Positions 2,938 to 11,494 of a stretch of DNA of 64,000 bases are shown piece by piece (positions within the stretch are counted from its first letter, which is position 1; each line of letters opens with the position of its first letter). The stretch is from sequence record LR746311, one strand, 5' to 3'. The notes beneath the pieces are model-generated. The model was not told where the DNA came from. It made no database searches and saw only the letters and a program-made list of their open reading frames with translations. The position numbers and the translations under genes are program-made. The DNA is from Shigella phage vB_SsoM_113.

Positions 2938-5115
2938 ATGATTATCACCACTGAAAAAGAAACAATTCTTGGTAATGGTTCTAAATCAAAAGCATTTAGC
3001 ATCACAGCATCTCCTAAAGTATTTAAAATTCTGTCATCTGATTTGTATACAAACAAGATTCGCGCAGTAGTCCGTGAATTGATTACCAACATGATTGATG
3101 CCCATGCTCTCAATGGAAATCCTGAAAAATTTATCATTCAAGTTCCAGGACGATTAGATCCGCGATTTGTTTGTCGAGATTTTGGTCCGGGTATGAGCGA
3201 TTTTGATATTCAAGGTGATGATAATTCTCCTGGGTTGTATAATTCATACTTTAGTTCATCTAAGGCTGAATCTAACGATTTCATTGGCGGATTTGGTTTA
3301 GGTTCTAAATCTCCGTTTAGTTATACTGATACATTTAGTATTACTTCATATCATAAAGGCGAAATTCGTGGTTATGTAGCTTACATGGATGGTGATGGTC
3401 CGCAGATTAAACCTACATTCGTAAAAGAAATGGGTCCAGATGATAAAACTGGTATTGAAATCGTAGTTCCAGTTGAAGAAAAAGACTTTAGAAACTTTGC
3501 TTATGAAGTTTCTTATATCATGCGACCATTCAAAGATTTAGCTATCATTAATGGTCTTGACCGCGAAATTGATTATTTTCCAGATTTTGATGACTATTAC
3601 GGCGTAAATCCAGAAAGATACTGGCCAGATCGTGGTGGATTGTATGCTATCTATGGTGGTATTGTTTATCCTATCGATGGTGTTATTAGAGACCGTAACT
3701 GGTTAAGCATCCGCAATGAAGTGAATTACATTAAGTTTCCAATGGGTTCACTTGATATTGCTCCATCACGCGAAGCTCTTTCATTGGATGATCGTACTCG
3801 TAAAAATATTATTGAGCGTGTTAAAGAGCTTAGTGAGAAGGCATTCAATGAAGATGTAAAACGATTTAAAGAATCTACATCTCCTCGTCATACATACCGT
3901 GAATTGATGAAGATGGGATATTCTGCTCGAGATTATATGATTAGTAATTCAGTCAAATTTACGACTAAAAATCTGTCATATAAGAAGATGCAAAGCATGT
4001 TTGAACCCGACAGTAAGTTATGCAATGCAGGAGTTGTGTATGAAGTAAATCTTGACCCTCGACTGAAACGCATTAAGCAAAGTCATGAAACTTCGGCCGT
4101 TGCATCAAGTTATCGTCTATTTGGTATTAATACAACAAAAATTAATATTGTTATTGATAATATTAAAAATCGTGTTAATATTGTCCGTGGATTAGCACAT
4201 GCATTAGATGATAGTGAATTTAATAACACTTTGAATATTCATCACAATGAGCGTCTTCTGTTTATTAATCCGGAAGTAGAATCGCAGATTGATTTACTCC
4301 CTGATATTATGGCAATGTTTGAAAGTGATGAAGTTAACATTCATTATTTGTCAGAAATTGAAGCTTTAGTTAAAAGTTATATTCCGAAGGTAGTTAAAAG
4401 TAAAGCTCCTCGTCCTAAAGCTGCTACTGCATTTAAGTTTGAAATTAAAGACGGACGCTGGGAAAAAGAGGAACTGTTTACACTCACATCAGAAGCAGAT
4501 GAAATTACTGGTTATGTAGCATATATGCATCGTTCTGATATTTTCTCTATGGATGGTACTACATCGCTTTGTCATCCATCTACGAGTATTTTGACTCGTA
4601 TGGCTAATCTTATTGGCATTAATGAATTTTATGTTATTCGTCCGCTTTTGCAGAAAAAGGTAAAAGAACTTGGTCAGTGCCAATGTATTTTTGAAACTCT
4701 GCGTGATTTATATGTAGATGCTTTTGATGATGTAGATTATGATAAGTATGTAGGTTATTCAAGTTCAGCTCAGCGATATATTGATAAAATTATTAAGTAT
4801 CCTGAACTCGATTTTATGATGAAATATTTTAGTACAGATGAAGTTTCCGAAGAATATACACGACTCGGTAATATGGTTAGTTCATTGCGGGGGATATATT
4901 TCAACGGTGGAAAAGATACCATCGGTCATGACATCTGGACAGTAACTAATCTTTTTGATGTATTATCAAATAATGCTTCAAAAAACAGTGATAAAATGGT
5001 TGCTGAGTTTACCAAGAAATTCCGTATTGTTTCCGACTTCATCGGTTATCGCAACTCTTTAAGTGATGATGAAGTTTCCCAAATCGCTAAAACTATGAAG
5101 GCCCTTGCGGCCTAA
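2938..5115 (+). CDS. rIIA: rIIA protein
   Basis: 725 aa (same as T4 rIIA), GHKL-like N-terminal region, followed by rIIB. Confidence 0.9.
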
Positions 5116-6326: not shown

Positions 6327-6656
6327 ATGATTTATTGTATGAATATCGGTGATTCCGACACAAAAGAGATTAAACTGCATGGAAATCATCATGCTAATAT
6401 TGTGTACTGTAATAAATTTGAGTTTGGCCATGAAAAACTTGGGTTTCTTTACTGCAATGATGTTATAGTCATGGATAAAAAGGAACTCGATGAACTCGAC
6501 CATAAGTCTTTAGATGAAAATGATCGAATTTATTATGGCACTCTTAAAGTATATAACGCTTATCTCAGCGGTAAAAAGGAAAGTCTAAATGCAGAAAACG
6601 AATCCGGGTTTACAGAGACTATTTCAGATTCCGACATTTACCCTATCGAACAGTGA
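6327..6656 (+). CDS. hypothetical protein
   Basis: 109-aa ORF with RBS; 3' end overlaps the putative denB start by 68 nt. Confidence 0.4.
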   Translation: MIYCMNIGDSDTKEIKLHGNHHANIVYCNKFEFGHEKLGFLYCNDVIVMDKKELDELDHKSLDENDRIYYGTLKVYNAYLSGKKESLNAENESGFTETISDSDIYPIEQ

Positions 6657-7146
6657 CTTGACTAGTGAAATGAAGGTCAAAATTGCTGATACAGCAAGAT
6701 ACTCTTTAAAACAAGACCCGAACCAGGATAAAGCAGAAGTTATCGAAAGATGCCGTATCGCGGTGTACGCAGAGTTTTTTGTAGCAGATTGGCTGAGCGG
6801 GTATGTTAACAAAGGCCAAGAGGATGTTAATGACCCGTATACATACGCATGGGATGTATTGGCGCATCCAAGATACTGTGGGCTTCGTGTAGAAGTTAAG
6901 ACACACCAAACTGACTCACGTTGGATTTCGGTAACAACAGGATGCAGCGGGGAGTATCCATACGGTTCTGGAATAAATCTAGGGCCCATTCTGAATCACC
7001 AAGTCGCTGATTGTATAATTATATTCAACACTAAAGAAATTCATCCAGGTGTCATCCAGTACACTCCGAAGTTCATCGGTGACAGAGAAGACCTTCGTAA
7101 GGTTGTAAGAAAAAGCAACTACAATGGATGGTATCTTTCCATTTAA
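6589..7146 (+). CDS. denB: endonuclease IV (denB-like)
   Basis: 185 aa, same length as T4 EndoIV, at the conserved position between rIIB and ndd; alternative start at 6670. Confidence 0.55.
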   Translation: MQKTNPGLQRLFQIPTFTLSNSDLTSEMKVKIADTARYSLKQDPNQDKAEVIERCRIAVYAEFFVADWLSGYVNKGQEDVNDPYTYAWDVLAHPRYCGLRVEVKTHQTDSRWISVTTGCSGEYPYGSGINLGPILNHQVADCIIIFNTKEIHPGVIQYTPKFIGDREDLRKVVRKSNYNGWYLSI

Positions 7147-7200
7147 AAATTTTCACAAAACGGTTTACATACCACAAGGACTGTGGTACTATACAACTAT
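7146..7200 (+). promoter_or_regulatory. early promoter cassette (PeS-like repeat, copy A)
   Basis: aaaattttcacaaaacggtttacataccacaaggactgtggtactatacaactatc; -35 gtttac 7163-7168; spacer hairpin ccacag/ctgtgg; near-identical copies at 11165 and 28551. Confidence 0.6.
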
Positions 7201-7226
7201 CAACTGATACGGATTTGGAGAATAAA

Positions 7227-7433
7227 ATGTTTACTACGGCTGAATTAAAACGAGCAAAAGCTAAGAAAGGGCAAGGAAAATATAAAGCTGAATTAGTTAA
7301 AGAACTTCAGTTTGCTGAGGCTGAATTGAATTCGATGATTATTCAAAATGTTCCAGAAACTGAAATTGCTCTTAAACGTATTGCGAATAAATGTCTTCGT
7401 GATACAATCGTCGATCTTTTAGCGGATTATTGA
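7227..7433 (+). CDS. hypothetical protein
   Basis: 68-aa ORF starting downstream of the promoter; track ORF 7128..7433 begins inside the promoter so the ATG at 7227 is preferred. Confidence 0.45.
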   Translation: MFTTAELKRAKAKKGQGKYKAELVKELQFAEAELNSMIIQNVPETEIALKRIANKCLRDTIVDLLADY

Positions 7434-7702
7434 GTAAAATGAAATTTAAATTTTATTACGCTAAACATAAAATAACTGATGAGTTTGTGTCAGTTGAATA
7501 TTCTAGCGATGATGAAGGTATGATTTATACTCGTTTGGGATTATCACACTGGGAGTCTGATACGCCTTATTTTTCAACTCCCGAAGAAATTATACGCTTA
7601 GTTAATGGTCATATGAATGACCACTGGGATGTAATTCTTTCAGATAGTCTTAAAGCGGCTATTAATAGTAATGAAATGAAAATCGCTGAGATTGAACTAT
7701 GA
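7430..7702 (+). CDS. hypothetical protein
   Basis: 90-aa ORF, ATGA overlap with the upstream ORF. Confidence 0.45.
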   Translation: MSKMKFKFYYAKHKITDEFVSVEYSSDDEGMIYTRLGLSHWESDTPYFSTPEEIIRLVNGHMNDHWDVILSDSLKAAINSNEMKIAEIEL

Positions 7703-7785
7703 GTTCATTATGGTGGTGTTTTGTTTGGTTAATTAGTATTCCATTGATTTGTTTAGTATTTACTTTTGTGATGAGGTTATTATGA
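7699..7785 (+). CDS. small hydrophobic peptide (28 aa)
   Basis: MSSLWWCFVWLISIPLICLVFTFVMRLL; ATGA overlap with the upstream stop. Confidence 0.3.
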   Translation: MSSLWWCFVWLISIPLICLVFTFVMRLL

Positions 7786-7880
7786 AAATTTTGAATTCTG
7801 TACTTATTGCTTGTGCGTGGTGGATTGCGCAAGTTTCAGCGGTAGTGATTGGTATTCACATTTATTACGAATATTTTTAA
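7782..7880 (+). CDS. small hydrophobic peptide (32 aa)
   Basis: MKILNSVLIACAWWIAQVSAVVIGIHIYYEYF; start overlaps the previous stop. Confidence 0.3.
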   Translation: MKILNSVLIACAWWIAQVSAVVIGIHIYYEYF

Positions 7881-7887
7881 AAAAGTT

Positions 7888-7917
7888 GTTTACAAGACTG
7901 TTCCTCTGTGGTACTAT
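7888..7917 (+). promoter_or_regulatory. early promoter (PeS-like, copy D)
   Basis: gtttac 7888-7893 ... ctgtggtactatacaactatcaact, sharing its 3' half with copy A. Confidence 0.55.
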
Positions 7918-7945
7918 ACAACTATCAACTACGGAGGAACAGAAA

Positions 7946-8059
7946 ATGAAAAAGATTGTTAAAGCTATATGGAATGTAGTTATAATACTAGTAGTTTTGA
8001 GTATATTCCCAATCGTTTTAATGATTGATGTATTAAACGCTTACTTTGGATTTATGTGA
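7946..8059 (+). CDS. small membrane peptide (37 aa)
   Basis: GGAGGA RBS then MKKIVKAIWNVVIILVVLSIFPIVLMIDVLNAYFGFM. Confidence 0.35.
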   Translation: MKKIVKAIWNVVIILVVLSIFPIVLMIDVLNAYFGFM

Positions 8060-8066
8060 GGAAAAT

Positions 8067-8264
8067 ATGAAGCGTAAACGCAGTGCTTTTATATTTGTTG
8101 AATGGTTTTTTGATAATATTTTTCCGGCTTTATTCATTTTCATGCTGATTTTCGCCTTAGGTTCAGTTGTAGTTGGAATTTATTTGATGGCAGTTGTCGG
8201 AATGGATATTCACCAAAATGGCTTAAAATCTGTTGTTGAAACAATTTGGAATGGTGTAAAATGA
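8067..8264 (+). CDS. small membrane protein (65 aa)
   Basis: GAGGA RBS, two predicted TM segments. Confidence 0.4.
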   Translation: MKRKRSAFIFVEWFFDNIFPALFIFMLIFALGSVVVGIYLMAVVGMDIHQNGLKSVVETIWNGVK

Positions 8265-8371
8265 TGAATTTATTGAGTGGTTGGTTTTATATTCTCATGT
8301 TTTACGTCGGTGCAAATTTTCCGTATTGGATGGGATGGTCAACAACTGCATTTGGATTTTATACTCCCTGA
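8261..8371 (+). CDS. small hydrophobic peptide (36 aa)
   Basis: ATGA overlap; MMNLLSGWFYILMFYVGANFPYWMGWSTTAFGFYTP. Confidence 0.3.
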   Translation: MMNLLSGWFYILMFYVGANFPYWMGWSTTAFGFYTP

Positions 8372-8379
8372 GGTGAATT

Positions 8380-8595
8380 ATGAAAATTTTTAAAGATGTA
8401 AAAGTTGGCGAAATTTTTTGCTTAGATAGTGGTGATCAGTTAATTCGTATTTCACCTCTTAAGAGCACTAGCGAGAAAATGACAGTTAATGCTACTTTAG
8501 CAAACAACAGTAATGAACGTTTCTGTATTGAAAATGATACTGAAACTTATACCGTAGAAGAGTTCTGGGAATTGAGCGTCGACTGCGACGATTAA
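8380..8595 (+). CDS. hypothetical protein (ndd.1 position)
   Basis: 71-aa ORF with RBS upstream of ndd. Confidence 0.45.
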   Translation: MKIFKDVKVGEIFCLDSGDQLIRISPLKSTSEKMTVNATLANNSNERFCIENDTETYTVEEFWELSVDCDD

Positions 8596-8654
8596 TTTAT
8601 CGGCCGTGTGTATTCATGCGGCCTTGGAGTAGAAAATAATTAGAGGAAATTAAT

Positions 8655-9107
8655 ATGAAATACATGACTGTTACTGATCTGAATAATGCAGGTGCTACTG
8701 TTATTGGTACAATCAAGGGCGGTGAATGGTTTTTGGGAACTCCGCACAAAGATATTTTATCTAAACCTGGATTTTACTTTTTAATAAGTGAATTCGATGG
8801 TTCATATGGTTCATGCGTATCTGCACGATTTTATGTAGGTAATCAGCGTTCTAAGCAAGGGTTTAGTGCAGTTCTAAGTCATATTCGTCAACGTCGGTCT
8901 CAGCTCGCGCGCACTATTGCAAATAATAATGTTCCATACGCAGTATTTTATTTGCCTGCTTCTAAGATGAAACCTTTGACGACAGGATTTGGAAAAGGTC
9001 AGTTAGCTTTAGCGTTTACTCGTAATCATCATTCTGAGTATCAAACACTTGAAGAAATGAACCGTATGTTGGCTGATAACTTTAAATTTGTTTTGCAGGT
9101 ATACTAA
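8655..9107 (+). CDS. ndd: nucleoid disruption protein Ndd
   Basis: 150 aa, sequence matches recalled T4 Ndd, conserved position upstream of stp. Confidence 0.7.
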
Positions 9108-9187
9108 TGAGTAATTTCCATAACGAACATGTGATGCAGTTCTATCGTAACAATCTTAAAACTAAAGGCGTCTTCGGACGCCAGTGA
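9107..9187 (+). CDS. stp: Stp peptide (activator of the host PrrC anticodon nuclease / anti-restriction peptide)
   Basis: Translation [26 protein letters not shown] is the 26-aa T4 Stp; start overlaps the ndd stop (TAATG); not in the ORF track because under 60 aa. Confidence 0.9.
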
Positions 9188-9194
9188 GGAAAAT

Positions 9195-9350
9195 ATGAAA
9201 TTTGTTCACGGTATAACCTTTTTCTGTTGGTTCTTTTTATGCATCGGAACAGTAATAACTGGAGAAACTTCAGTATTTTTGCAAGCATCAGCTCAGGGCG
9301 TATTAGCGATTTTATCATTATTCGCGTACATTGGTTCTAAAAATAGTTGA
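9195..9350 (+). CDS. ac: small membrane protein (ac-like, acridine sensitivity)
   Basis: 51-aa hydrophobic ORF directly after stp, position and size of T4 ac. Confidence 0.55.
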   Translation: MKFVHGITFFCWFFLCIGTVITGETSVFLQASAQGVLAILSLFAYIGSKNS

Positions 9351-9360
9351 GGAGAATATT

Positions 9361-9519
9361 ATGAATATCGCAAAATTATTAGGAGTTATTTCATTTATTT
9401 GTTGGATAGTAGCATGTGTTTTAACTATCTGTATCGATGCTAGCAGTGTGTTTTCACAAGCTTTAGCCCAGGGTATGTGTGCATATTTAACATTTGTGTT
9501 GTTATCTACTAATGATTAA
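9361..9519 (+). CDS. small membrane protein, paralog of ac (52.1 position)
   Basis: 52 aa; shares a SVF-QA-AQG motif with the ac-like ORF. Confidence 0.45.
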   Translation: MNIAKLLGVISFICWIVACVLTICIDASSVFSQALAQGMCAYLTFVLLSTND

Positions 9520-9652
9520 GAAAATCTTGGGCTATTCATTAGCCCTTGCTACTTTATTGGTAGCACTATATTATGGAGTAATGTTCGGATTAATTCAAGT
9601 CGTGCTTTTCATTTCTGATGTTATTATGGCACTACATTCACTAGTATGGTAA
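9512..9652 (+). CDS. small membrane peptide (46 aa)
   Basis: Hydrophobic ORF overlapping the previous stop and ending 4 nt before gene 52. Confidence 0.3.
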   Translation: MIKKILGYSLALATLLVALYYGVMFGLIQVVLFISDVIMALHSLVW

Positions 9653-9656
9653 ATTT

Positions 9657-10985
9657 ATGCAACTGAATAATCGCGATTTAAAAAGTATCATTGATAATGA
9701 AGCATTGGCTTATGCTATGTACACGGTTGAAAATCGTGCTATCCCAAATATGATTGACGGATTTAAGCCAGTTCAACGATTTGTTATTGCTCGAGCTCTT
9801 GATTTAGCACGAGGAAATAAAGATAAGTTTCACAAACTCGCTTCTATTGCAGGTGGTGTAGCAGACCTTGGATATCATCATGGTGAAATCTCTGCACAAG
9901 ACGCAGGTGCTTTGATGGCTAACACTTGGAATAATAACTTTCCTTTGTTAGATGGTCAAGGAAACTTTGGTTCTCGTACCGTTCAAAAAGCAGCGGCAAG
10001 TCGTTATATTTTTGCTCGTGTAAGTAAAAATTTCTATAACGTATATAAAGATACTGAATATGCTCCGGTACATCAAGATAAAGAACACATTCCGCCTGCT
10101 TTCTATTTGCCTATTATTCCTACTGTTCTTCTTAATGGTGTTTCCGGTATTGCAACTGGTTATGCAACTTACATTCTTCCTCATAGTGTTTCTTCTGTCA
10201 AGAAAGCTGTATTGCAAGCTCTTCAAGGAAAGAAAGTAACTAAACCTAAGGTAGAATTCCCAGAATTTCGTGGTGAAGTCGTTGAAATTGACGGTCAATA
10301 TGAAATTCGTGGAACGTACAAGTTTACTTCACGAACTCAAATGCATATCACTGAGATTCCGTATAAGTATGATCGTGAAACTTATGTGAGTAAAATCTTA
10401 GACCCGCTTGAAGATAAAGGCTTCATTACATGGGATGATGCTTGTGGTGAGCATGGTTTTGGCTTCAAAGTTAAATTCCGTAAAGAATATTCCTTGAGCG
10501 ATAACGAAGAAGAACGCCATGCAAAAATTATGAAAGACTTCGGGTTGATTGAGCGTCGTTCCCAGAATATTACCGTTATTAATGAGAAAGGAAAACTACA
10601 AGTTTACGATAACGTAGTTGATTTAATCAAAGACTTCGTTGAAGTTCGTAAAACTTATGTCCAAAAACGAATTGATAACAAAATCAAAGAAACTGAATCA
10701 GCATTTCGTTTAGCCTTTGCCAAGGCACATTTCATTAAGAAAGTAATTTCAGGTGAAATTGTTGTACAAGGTAAAACTCGTAAAGAACTGACCGAAGAAC
10801 TTTCTAAAATTGATATGTATTCTTCTTATGTTGATAAACTAGTTGGAATGAACATTTTTCATATGACTTCCGACGAAGCAAAGAAACTTGCTGAAGAAGC
10901 TAAAGCTAAAAAAGAAGAAAACGAATATTGGAAAACTACTGATGTAGTTACCGAATACACTAAAGATTTAGAGGAAATCAAATGA
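9657..10985 (+). CDS. 52: DNA topoisomerase II medium subunit (GyrA-like)
   Basis: 442 aa (same as T4 gp52), N-terminus with GyrA-like motifs, upstream of motA as in T4. Confidence 0.9.
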   Translation: MQLNNRDLKSIIDNEALAYAMYTVENRAIPNMIDGFKPVQRFVIARALDLARGNKDKFHKLASIAGGVADLGYHHGEISAQDAGALMANTWNNNFPLLDGQGNFGSRTVQKAAASRYIFARVSKNFYNVYKDTEYAPVHQDKEHIPPAFYLPIIPTVLLNGVSGIATGYATYILPHSVSSVKKAVLQALQGKKVTKPKVEFPEFRGEVVEIDGQYEIRGTYKFTSRTQMHITEIPYKYDRETYVSKILDPLEDKGFITWDDACGEHGFGFKVKFRKEYSLSDNEEERHAKIMKDFGLIERRSQNITVINEKGKLQVYDNVVDLIKDFVEVRKTYVQKRIDNKIKETESAFRLAFAKAHFIKKVISGEIVVQGKTRKELTEELSKIDMYSSYVDKLVGMNIFHMTSDEAKKLAEEAKAKKEENEYWKTTDVVTEYTKDLEEIK

Positions 10986-11131
10986 GTCCATTCATTGGTA
11001 TTACAAGCGCTGCGTTAGTATCCGGTGGCATTTTACTGGCGGGTTTAGGTGTTGTTCCTGCTGTAGCAGGAGGTCTTCTTGCGTTCGGAATTCAACGTGT
11101 TATCATGACAGTTATCACAGTCATGCAGTAA
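10982..11131 (+). CDS. small membrane peptide (49 aa)
   Basis: ATGA overlap with the gene 52 stop; Gly/Ala-rich TM peptide. Confidence 0.35.
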   Translation: MSPFIGITSAALVSGGILLAGLGVVPAVAGGLLAFGIQRVIMTVITVMQ

Positions 11132-11136
11132 TTTTA

Positions 11137-11164
11137 GGGAGAGCCGAGGCTCTCCCTTTTTTTA
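11137..11164 (+). terminator. rho-independent terminator
   Basis: gggagagc-cgag-gctctccc followed by ttttttt. Confidence 0.6.
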
Positions 11165-11218
11165 TTTCAAAAATTTTTTCACAAAACGGTTTACAAGCAT
11201 AAAGCCTTATGGTACTAT
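11165..11218 (+). promoter_or_regulatory. early promoter cassette (PeS-like, copy B)
   Basis: aaaattttttcacaaaacggtttaca...tggtactatacaactatc; -35 gtttac at 11189-11194. Confidence 0.6.
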
Positions 11219-11266
11219 ACAACTATCAAATAAATGAACTGAAACAAACAACCCGGAGATACAAAA

Positions 11267-11494
11267 ATGAAATTTAAAATCGAAAACGAAATCGTTAAAG
11301 CTAAAAATGCTCTGACTGCTAACAAACTGGTTGTAGATGGTATTGAATATGATATCTGTGGAGTTCGTGAAGAAAAACCCGGTGTTCTGACTTTCTTCAC
11401 AATGATTTTTAAATTTAAAGGTGACACAGAATTCAAACAGTTTGATTTTGCCCATGAAGACGAAATCGAAGTTCGTAATCTGAACATTAAGTAA
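11267..11494 (+). CDS. hypothetical protein (motA.1 position)
   Basis: 75-aa ORF between gene 52 and motA. Confidence 0.45.
   Translation: MKFKIENEIVKAKNALTANKLVVDGIEYDICGVREEKPGVLTFFTMIFKFKGDTEFKQFDFAHEDEIEVRNLNIK

Follow-up and report, generated by a model that had tools for sequence, protein, structure and literature searches.

An early membrane-peptide cluster with two types of ac gene in the T4-like Shigella phage vB_SsoM_113

Between denB and gene 52 of Shigella phage vB_SsoM_113 (sequence record LR746311) lies a run of very short, mostly hydrophobic open reading frames (ORFs), and the locus raises the question of whether such frames are genes and what their products might do in the infected cell. 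We analyzed it within a window of 64,000 nucleotides (nt) that derives from a Tequatrovirus, that is, a T4-like phage. All coordinates below refer to the + strand of the window, which has the same sense as early (leftward) transcription in T4; along it stand denB, the small ORFs, ndd.1, ndd, stp, the ac genes, 52.1, gene 52, and motA.1. We conclude that the stretch is the T-even denB-to-52 hyperplastic region, an overall reading to which we assign a probability of roughly 0.8, and that the cluster is the long-annotated ndd.6-ndd.2/ac/52.1 early membrane-peptide cluster of T4 and is already known. As a discovery it matters little, having been on the T4 map for decades with a family model for every peptide. 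What is less usual here is that both versions of ac stand side by side in one phage. This two-allele, tandem ac structure, an artefact of the T4 reference at ndd.3/ndd.2a, and a predicted hairpin that would occlude a Shine-Dalgarno sequence are the only new points, and they are mildly so.

A search with the 2.6 kb around the cluster matched 580 phage records, and almost every one is a Tequatrovirus of Escherichia, Shigella, or Yersinia; the region shares 93–96% DNA identity with Tequatroviruses. Its closest matches, at 95–97% identity, are Yersinia phage PST, ADUt, JLBYU22, and Shigella phage sb4.

Small hydrophobic frames of the early region

An earlier note on this DNA had described a dense run of translationally coupled ORFs with one or two predicted transmembrane (TM) helices around ndd, stp, and ac. 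The eight starts that it listed (7699, 7782, 7946, 8067, 8261, 9195, 9361, and 9512) all open ATG ORFs on the + strand. Their hydrophobicity, taken as the best mean of a 19-residue Kyte-Doolittle window, bears out the description for seven of the eight (2.0–3.05) and not for the ORF at 8261, ndd.2, which reaches 1.16, is aromatic-rich, carries no charged residue, and is weakly TM-like. A value of at least 2.0 is reached by 12% of the 270 ATG ORFs of 25–70 residues in the six frames of the whole window. On the + strand, 7 of the 21 small ORFs at this threshold fall within the 2-kb cluster, which makes up 3% of the window, and these seven overlap one another only at start and stop codons; the clustering of hydrophobic ORFs is well beyond chance. 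The packing is as tight as described, with ATGA overlaps at 7699, 7782, and 8261, a TAATG at 9107, an 8-nt overlap of ac and 52.1 (9512–9519), and otherwise gaps of 4–10 nt. Because the Shine-Dalgarno sequences of 52.1, ndd.6, and ndd.2 are weak or absent, translation of these three probably depends on translational coupling. A T4 time-course omics study assigns the transcripts of ndd.2 to ndd.6, stp, ac, and 52.1 to the early class (PMC9697503 Table S2).

Every small ORF corresponds to an annotated T4 gene, either directly or as an allele, each belongs to an existing PHROG or Pfam family, and all match PHROG families at 59–101 bits. The series opens with two single-helix peptides: ndd.6 (7699..7785; 28 residues, one hydrophobic helix), identical to T4 Ndd.6 at 26 of 28 positions (phrog_8851, 59.1 bits), and ndd.5 (7782..7880; 32 residues), whose ATG overlaps the ndd.6 stop (ATGA) and which matches T4 Ndd.5 at 30 of 32 (phrog_5011, 89.7 bits). 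The 37-residue ndd.4 product (7946..8059) has an N-terminal KK-x-x-K, one TM helix, and a conserved Asp, and is identical at 34 of 37 positions to T4 Ndd.4 counted from the second Met of the T4 protein (phrog_3098, 76.1 bits). It is followed by a 65-residue DUF7248 protein (8067..8264; phrog_2401, 101.5 bits), which joins T4 'ndd.3' and 'ndd.2a' in a single frame and consists of a basic N-terminus, a long hydrophobic segment, and a conserved C-terminal GLKSVVE-x-IWNG; against PF23906 it scores 70.2 bits (gathering cut-off 27), with residues 13–63 on profile positions 8–57 of 58. Next comes ndd.2 (8261..8371; 36 residues), with a GxNxPYW(L/M)GW motif and 34 of 36 residues shared with T4 Ndd.2 (phrog_4135, 85.1 bits).

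Three hydrophilic or soluble products interrupt the hydrophobic series: ndd.1 (8380..8595; 71 residues, soluble, not hydrophobic), whose T4 counterpart has been detected as an early protein; the nucleoid disruption gene ndd (8655..9107), which also has its T4 counterpart; and, directly after it, stp (9107..9187), a 26-residue hydrophilic peptide that activates the host PrrC anticodon nuclease, identical to T4 Stp and matching PF08133 at 75.3 bits (cut-off 25). Beyond the ac genes, 52.1 (9512..9652) encodes a 46-residue hydrophobic peptide, identical to T4 gp52.1 at 45 of 46 positions and aligned over residues 1–46 to positions 1–46 of the 46 in PF24129 (DUF7396; 81.9 bits, cut-off 27); it lacks a Shine-Dalgarno sequence, and 4 nt separate its end from gene 52. 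Our local Pfam scan gave no model match for Ac, ndd.6, ndd.5, ndd.4, or ndd.2, and an NCBIfam scan of ten ORFs returned sub-threshold noise only.

One could hold that the small ORFs are chance frames, which are often hydrophobic in an AT-rich, T-rich genome, and not genes at all. The 12% of small ATG ORFs in the window that reach the same hydrophobicity threshold speak for this explanation, as does the absence of the peptides from T4 proteomics, to which we return below. The substitution pattern effectively refutes it. Synonymous and non-synonymous differences were counted in the annotated frame and in both other frames of an in-genus alignment of 12 Tequatrovirus versions (the window, PST, ime09, T4, RB51, wV7, RB32, and five IMG/VR contigs). 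The ratio of non-synonymous to synonymous differences (pN/pS) in the annotated frame is 0.14 for ndd.6, 0.12 for ndd.5, 0.08 for the 65-residue ORF, 0.14 for ndd.2, 0.11 for ndd.1, 0.10 for ndd, and 0.04 for stp. Off frame it ranges from 0.70 to 5.67 (ndd.6, 0.73 and 2.59; ndd.5, 1.9 and 2.4; the 65-residue ORF, 2.15 and 1.13; ndd.2, 0.70 and 2.04). Since ndd.4 and 52.1 differ too little within the genus for such counts, we used for them a cross-genus set of 36 IMG/VR loci anchored on Ndd (45–93% Ndd identity). There, 52.1 is 87–93% identical where Ndd is about 61% identical, with a synonymous difference (pS) of 0.34–0.45 and a pN/pS of 0.09–0.16, and ndd.4 has a pN/pS of 0.30–0.41 at 54–59% identity, the same range as Ndd.

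Conservation beyond the genus points the same way as this strong, frame-specific purifying selection. Iterated profiles placed homologues at the same map positions in 24 of the 36 loci for ndd.6, 35 for ndd.4, 22 for DUF7248, 18 for ndd.2, and 35 for 52.1, and confined those of ndd.5 to Tequatrovirus loci. Both synteny and particular residues persist even where the Ndd of a T4-like phage has diverged to 45–63% identity; the conserved motifs are W-C..W..IP..C in ndd.6, KAIWN..FP..ID in ndd.4, a C-terminal GLKSVVExIWNG in DUF7248, GxNxPYWLGW in ndd.2, and YYG..VLFISDVI..SLxW in 52.1. Together with the curated family models and the genetics of ac and stp, these results leave the chance-frame explanation next to no credence. 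Conservation in related phages, on which the earlier note had staked its proposal, was thus checked and found: the ORFs have been kept as reading frames, they encode small hydrophobic peptides, and they belong to a densely packed unit that is transcribed early. Some flags of 'not intact' for ndd.5, stp, and ndd reflect alignment edges or local insertions and not broken genes. An off-frame ORF lying over the promoter-like site at 7889, which iterated hidden Markov models pulled in as 'ndd.4', was discarded, the profiles having taken up untranslated leader.

Several points weigh against reading the cluster as a set of expressed membrane peptides. In T4 time-course shotgun proteomics 52.1, Ac, Stp, and Ndd.2–Ndd.6 were undetected, whereas the soluble Ndd and Ndd.1 were detected (PMC9697503 Table S2). 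Direct evidence of translation is genetic and limited to ac and stp, the other peptides being predicted; our literature search found no ribosome-profiling study of T4, and a search on T4 small membrane proteins returned nothing relevant. Between genera ndd.6 is weakly constrained (pN/pS 0.6–1.6 over 28 codons), and ndd.2 is weakly hydrophobic. Membrane insertion and topology are predicted from hydrophobicity, charge distribution, and an AlphaFold2 (AF2) model of moderate confidence. The substitution analysis nevertheless confirms these ORFs of fewer than 60 residues as genuine genes under selection, which many automated annotations drop or mislabel.

Reference records illustrate the problem. 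In the T4 RefSeq entry NC_000866, a missing G in codon 3 (ATGAAGCGT becoming ATGAACGT) splits the DUF7248 gene into 'ndd.3' (26 residues, in the +1 frame) and 'ndd.2a' (40 residues, from an internal Met). Because the frame is intact in 11 of the 12 Tequatrovirus loci and in the T4 assembly OZ209057, ndd.3 is, as far as sequence can tell, almost certainly not a gene (the gene lies at 4433–4629 of the locus extracted from NC_000866, L003, and at 598–795 of that from OZ209057, L044). The two RefSeq entries are an artefact or polymorphism of a single 65-residue gene, most likely a sequencing error or a stock polymorphism; a full-text literature search for 'ndd.2a' returned zero papers. The start of ndd.4 annotated in T4 (MEEQKMKK..., 42 residues) overlaps its own GGAGG, and since this upstream ATG is ACG in the window, RB32, and PST (7943–7948), the product is likely the 37-residue form from the downstream ATG.

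The PST record omits ndd.6, ndd.5, stp, the T4-type ac, and 52.1, all of which are intact there (1597–1778, 3007–3087, and 3261–3549 of the PST locus, L001). PST has been said to have exchanged ndd.4/.5 for ORF268/269 (PMC4122927, Fig. 6A legend). The intact but unannotated genes weaken this account: with ndd.6, ndd.5, and ndd.4 all in place, the exchange looks to be partly an effect of annotation, and ORF268/269 would be additions rather than replacements. Product names in public records are also corrupted in places, Ndd.4 appearing as 'naphthalene 1,2-dioxygenase' and MotA.1 as 'flagellar motor protein MotA', and hydrophobic peptides of 28–36 residues are called 'outer membrane protein' or 'periplasmic protein', names without support in the sequence. 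In phage AugustSocin ndd is annotated in two parts. An insertion of about 120 bp separates ndd from stp in ime09 (3012–3258 of locus L002) and in two further loci (L013 and L037, about 2941–3190); a 57-residue ORF is annotated in the ime09 insertion, and with the insertion the longest ORF containing stp is 41–42 residues.

Two ac types in one slot

The earlier note had seen that an ac-like peptide and its downstream neighbor share an SVF-QA-AQG motif and had suggested a duplication. The motif stands, as S-V-F-x-Q-A-x-A-Q-G in both ORFs, but the labels had been swapped: the orthologue of T4 ac is the second ORF (9361..9519; 52 residues), which shares 50 identical residues with the 51-residue T4 Ac, the sole difference being a Thr inserted near the C-terminus. 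The first ORF (9195..9350; 51 residues) has no T4 counterpart and is an ac allele of the RB32/RB69 type, which we call acP. Both ORFs score 88.6 bits on phrog_2501 (E ~3.5e-25), and close homologues of both carry PF26944 'Phage_T4_Ac', for which our local Pfam copy gave no match, presumably because it lacks the model. As expected of the Ac family, both copies lie within the early unit after stp (or ndd) and ahead of 52.1/gene 52. Proteins entered under the name 'acridine resistance' for RB33, RB68, and T4_ev151 share 69–96% identity with the acP product; RB51, wV7, and RB32 have no ac other than the acP type, which occupies exactly the slot between stp and 52.1, the RB32 record remarking that its ac is 'more similar to RB69'. 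In some records (ADUt, ESh33, vB_Eco_EL) both copies are already labelled 'acridine resistance'.

Adjacency and a common orientation, length, motif, and PHROG would suit a recent tandem duplication in situ in the lineage of the window phage. The divergence of the copies makes this very improbable: with about 40% amino acid identity (38–41% by alignment), 53% nucleotide identity, and a pS of 0.67, which amounts to synonymous saturation, a recent duplication is ruled out on our data. Each copy is moreover 95–100% identical to alleles found singly in other phages, and the upstream copy resembles Ac-like genes of other genera (a TGETSV...Q..AQ motif in loci L012, L013, and L030). The proposed duplication therefore holds in the sense that the two are paralogues, and by sequence comparison they are old and divergent ones. 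Both types are under purifying selection, with a pN/pS of 0.04 for T4-type ac (nine distinct alleles) and, for acP, of 0.34 in frame versus 0.92 and 1.03 off frame. Since Ac-like genes of other genera carry an acP-like turn (TTGETSVISQAIPQ, TKESSVASQFLAQ, TGEATVISQSVAQG) and one metagenomic form (P0008) is intermediate between the types, the T4-type looks like the derived copy.

Among some 500 ac-carrying phage records (counts that include GenBank/RefSeq duplicates), 459 hold the T4-type, 92 the acP-type, and 50 the junction of acP with ac, so that roughly 80% have the T4-type only, 8% acP only, and 10% the tandem. All three layouts share their flanks, stp-GAGGAAAATATGAA upstream and AATGATTAAGAAAATC, the start of 52.1, downstream (alignment A1). 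In the same alignment, removing from the tandem the segment between two ATGAA starts gives the T4 layout, and removing the segment between AAAAAT and CTAAT gives that of RB51 with its ..GSKND end. Because both single layouts derive from the tandem by such simple microhomology deletions, the tandem, with the RB32/RB69-type first and the T4-type second, is probably ancestral, most relatives having lost one copy by microhomology-mediated deletion. Counting against this order of events, it is based on the logic of the junctions and not on a dated phylogeny.

The competing explanation is secondary stacking, in which a T4-type and an RB32-type phage infected the same cell and their alleles were brought together by illegitimate or unequal recombination. 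It would account for both alleles occupying exactly one slot with identical flanks and for the tandem being confined to about 10% of records, and it draws on the heavy recombination of T4-like phages in the hyperplastic region, including shuffling mediated by PeSL cassettes at this very locus in PST (PMC4122927). The inter-copy spacer TAGTTGAGGAGAATATT, found only in tandem genomes, and the acP C-terminus (..GSKNS-stop) are however missing from both single-allele layouts, and both single layouts can be obtained from the tandem by microhomology deletion. We consider stacking unlikely, while giving it more weight than any other alternative discussed here, and prefer an ancestral tandem with later loss.

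The Ac family is narrow. Searching its profile against 1.84 billion representatives returned only six small clusters and no wider relatives. The clusters that were checked sit on T4-like contigs; two long proteins with short, repeated matches in the same search were regarded as spurious. Positional 'ac' matches in four loci (L025, L026, L028, and L038; E ~1e-7) do not contain the motif and were treated as a different hydrophobic family. In the phage T2 record AP018813 no ac is annotated, and a regular-expression search for the motif found no intact Ac-family ORF; in a recent preprint on Ac (bioRxiv 10.1101/2025.06.30.662393, hereafter the Ac preprint), T2 is listed twice in the alignment of Figure 5, where an asterisk denotes a stop codon. 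An identical 16-nt cassette of stop, Shine-Dalgarno sequence, and start, GTGAGGAAAATATGAA, occurs before the DUF7248 gene (8056–8071) and before the upstream ac paralogue (9184–9199), and also precedes ac in T4 and RB32. Database entries under 'ac' thus cover two types, about 40% identical and able to co-occur, which matters for acriflavine selection and for studies of Ac and efflux; recent work on Ac surveyed the T4-type only.

Ac and the possible roles of its neighbors

Among the small membrane peptides, Ac alone is supported in its function, through the literature. Ac raises acridine accumulation, and loss of ac renders T4 resistant to acriflavine (Ac preprint; PMC13250531), as does the substitution G38R, which alters the Gly of the AQG motif (Ac preprint). 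The Thr insertion seen in the ORF at 9361..9519 also occurs in the Ac of phage PP01, where it is neutral for acriflavine sensitivity, and plasmid-borne Ac sensitizes E. coli to acriflavine, with a 3-log drop, and to ampicillin (Ac preprint). These acridine phenotypes have been published for T4-type Ac only (Ac preprint; PMC13250531).

The AF2 model of acP, built from a 12-sequence family alignment, has helices at residues 2–22 and 25–49 (mean predicted local distance difference test score, 79). The two Ac copies have best Kyte-Doolittle windows of 2.02 and 2.74, and an ESMfold model of T4 Ac agrees with the two-helix picture (Ac preprint). In the 12 family members W12, T19, V27, F28, Q30, Q34, G35, and A38 are invariant, with A31 conserved in at least 90%, and the invariant residues cluster at the end of helix 1 and in the first turns of helix 2. 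Ac would accordingly be drawn as a two-helix hairpin; Lys residues near both ends and the positive-inside rule place both termini probably in the cytoplasm, which would put the acidic/polar motif E/D-x-S-V-F-x-Q-A-x-A-Q-G at the periplasmic start of helix 2.

We propose that the peptides would enter the cytoplasmic membrane in the opening minutes of infection and there retune functions of the host envelope. Ac in particular may bind a host inner-membrane transporter and inhibit drug efflux, so that acridines accumulate; the published candidate is AcrB of AcrAB-TolC, and a block of this pump by Ac has been proposed (Ac preprint; PMC13250531). The suggestion of transporter inhibition in the earlier note agrees with this hypothesis. 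We hold a block of AcrAB-TolC to be the most likely single mechanism, though tentatively and at somewhat less than even odds. Against it, the proposal of AcrAB-TolC as the target is a preprint hypothesis; an Ac-family profile run against PDB chains, AcrZ included, gave no match at E <= 10, and our literature search found no paper tying phage peptides to AcrB. Should Ac be shown to bind AcrB, the natural allelic series would be a ready structure-function panel.

On a different view of acridine sensitivity, Ac and 52.1 would serve the gp52 topoisomerase, for example as a membrane tether, and the topoisomerase, not permeability or efflux, would be the cause of the sensitivity. Gene 52 (9657..10985), encoding the medium subunit of topoisomerase II, belongs to the same transcription unit as the cluster; 52.1 lies directly upstream of it in 35 of the 38 loci scored (and in four more by record annotation) and is by far the most conserved member of the cluster. 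The RB32 record calls gp52 'membrane-associated', and mutations in genes 39 and 60 lead to acriflavine resistance (Miller 2003, as cited in the Ac preprint). A role of 52.1 tied to the topoisomerase is conceivable. Yet Ac alone sensitizes uninfected E. coli, in which there is no T4 topoisomerase, to acriflavine and ampicillin, and ac/pr mutants take up less dye (classical work as relayed in the Ac preprint). For Ac this topoisomerase route is quite improbable, and an effect on efflux remains the reading we favor.

For the peptides other than Ac, one alternative assigns a role in phospholipid metabolism to one or more of ndd.6, ndd.5, ndd.4, DUF7248, ndd.2, and 52.1. The T4 deletion saΔ9, which runs from 52.1 through denB, shows the block to be dispensable at about 50% of the burst and abolishes the post-infection stimulation of phospholipid synthesis, phosphatidylglycerol included, and its authors note several predicted membrane proteins in the region (PMC6071114). 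The deletion also removes ndd, denB, stp, and ndd.1, however; dCTPase, EndoIV, and Alc mutants likewise lose the stimulation, which points to DNA or nucleotide metabolism (PMC6071114); and Pfam, PHROG, and NCBIfam scans gave no homology to lipid enzymes or regulators. We think it unlikely that an uncharacterized peptide of the cluster causes the effect. Just as unlikely, in our estimate, is a broader scheme in which the two Ac types are diverged inhibitors of different host targets, such as RND pumps, with a host-selected polymorphism and a tandem that disables more efflux systems, and in which one anonymous peptide is the effector of phosphatidylglycerol stimulation.

The earlier note had also named superinfection exclusion and the triggering or evasion of membrane-associated host defence. 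The peptides are early, small, and membrane-directed, like T4 Imm, and their neighbor stp is known for triggering abortive infection through PrrC. Supporting matches were nonetheless lacking: a PADLOC scan, which did not include a direct comparison with T4 Imm or Sp, returned nothing but a 13.8-bit KwaA match for ndd.4 (E 0.0085) attributable to TM composition, PHROG assigns the peptides no functional or exclusion category, and the literature searched gave no experimental hint. The T4 exclusion genes imm and sp map elsewhere. Coordinates of sp and imm.1 are listed in T4 omics data (PMC9697503 Table S2). A defence-related role is, on balance, a shade less probable still than the lipid effect.

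Promoters, hairpins, and known systems

Two sites, TTTACA-17-TACTAT with a TG extension, are the only promoter-like matches in the region that resemble T4 early promoters; sigma-70-like matches in general are not in excess (21 versus 18.1 ± 4.2 in shuffled sequence). The first (7164..7192), after denB, heads a unit of two further ORFs (starting at 7227 and 7439), ndd.6, and ndd.5, and the second (7889..7917), which is conserved in T4, RB32, and PST (alignment A2), heads ndd.4 through motA.1. An identical 25-nt core, CTGTGGTACTATACAACTATCAACT, occurs at 7181–7205 and 7906–7930. The second copy reads ...TACTATTACCCTATCAACT in T4, RB32, and PST and is as in the window in one further locus (L004); because it differs in the former three, the two copies appear to have been homogenized in the window lineage, which is consistent with PeSL-type recombination.

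A 15-bp hairpin (7898..7942; arms 7898–7912 and 7928–7942; -23.2 kcal/mol, z = -6.2) lies between the -35 element of the second promoter and the start of ndd.4, and its 3' arm holds the ndd.4 GGAGG. As its 5' arm falls inside the spacer of the 7889 promoter, the hairpin is predicted to form in read-through RNA only; a transcript begun at about 7924 is missing this arm and is predicted to be unstructured. In eight distinct Tequatrovirus sequences, pairing is kept at 98.3% of stem positions; all internal changes are wobble-compatible, and none is a double compensatory change. The folding suggests that ndd.4 and the genes coupled to it would be translated mainly from the proximal promoter. A second, GC-rich hairpin with a UUCG tetraloop (GGCGUC-UUCG-GACGCC; 9167–9182; -12.3 kcal/mol, z = -2.8) falls within the final codons of stp, immediately ahead of the Shine-Dalgarno sequence that serves the following gene. 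It does not vary among T4, RB32, RB51, and wV7 and could be an element of mRNA stability or processing.

The unit continues beyond gene 52 into a 49-residue, Gly/Ala/Val-rich hydrophobic ORF (10982..11131), whose start overlaps the stop of gene 52 (ATGA) and whose position is that of T4 motA.1; it fits the pattern of small membrane peptides and lies beyond the coordinates of the earlier note. A strong intrinsic-terminator-like hairpin (11136..11157; 9 bp, 6 GC, T-run) follows motA.1 and ends the unit, and the wV7 record annotates a rho-independent terminator at the equivalent place. An Rfam scan of 6500–11300 found no family, only a sub-threshold terminator-like match at 11131–11179.

The closest known system is T4 itself, where the segment at 165.2–167.0 kb of the NC_000866 map, marked 'predicted membrane proteins', has the same order, orientation, and neighbors (denB upstream, gene 52 downstream), shares the PHROG and Pfam families, and encodes peptides with 93–100% amino acid identity to those of the window; ac has been placed within one of three T4 gene clusters for predicted membrane proteins (Ac preprint). 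The window phage differs from T4 in the extra ac paralogue at 9195–9350, in the intact 65-residue gene in place of the 'ndd.3' and truncated 'ndd.2a' of the T4 RefSeq entry, and in two extra soluble ORFs after denB, at 7227–7433 (68 residues) and 7439–7702 (87 residues). These two lie before ndd.6 and are absent from T4, the second being labelled RB69ORF270c-like in ime09, RB51, and wV7. Their presence varies among relatives, which may have both, a single one, or none; the first occurs alone in RB32 and the second alone in RB51 and wV7.

Both promoter sites fit the PST/T4 consensus of PeSL cassettes, TTTACW-N17-TAYWAT (PMC4122927), and resemble such cassettes (Arbiol 2010; Comeau 2014, PMC4122927) in that the promoter is followed by a Shine-Dalgarno sequence and an ATG. 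They also flank the indel that separates the window phage and PST from T4, at the same locus that PMC4122927 illustrates. They differ from PeSL cassettes in the placement of the stem-loop, which at 7889 overlaps promoter and Shine-Dalgarno sequence instead of lying upstream; at 7164 no stem-loop was found upstream of the promoter.

When T4 genes e, soc, and I-TevI are transcribed from promoters farther upstream, their Shine-Dalgarno sequences are sequestered. The predicted hairpin before ndd.4 resembles these occlusion hairpins, as its Shine-Dalgarno sequence would pair with sequence upstream of the proximal start and only the proximal RNA would be open. The difference is that both promoters here are of the early type, so that the effect would be one of promoter choice and not of early versus late timing; covariation is also weak, being confined to wobble changes.

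The acP product can be set beside T4 Ac, with which it shares its length, the modelled two-helix architecture, and the S-V-F-x-Q-A-x-A-Q-G core including the Gly linked to resistance; it differs in being about 40% identical, in having TGE in place of IDA before the motif, and in its C-terminus. In E. coli, AcrZ, which binds AcrB, the pump proposed as the target of Ac, and likewise MgtS and SgrT, offer a likeness in manner of working only: peptides of about 50 residues or fewer that reside in the inner membrane and modulate large transporters. AcrZ has one TM helix against the two modelled for Ac and shows no sequence relationship to it, and AcrZ tunes the substrate specificity of the pump rather than blocking it, whereas Ac is proposed to inhibit.

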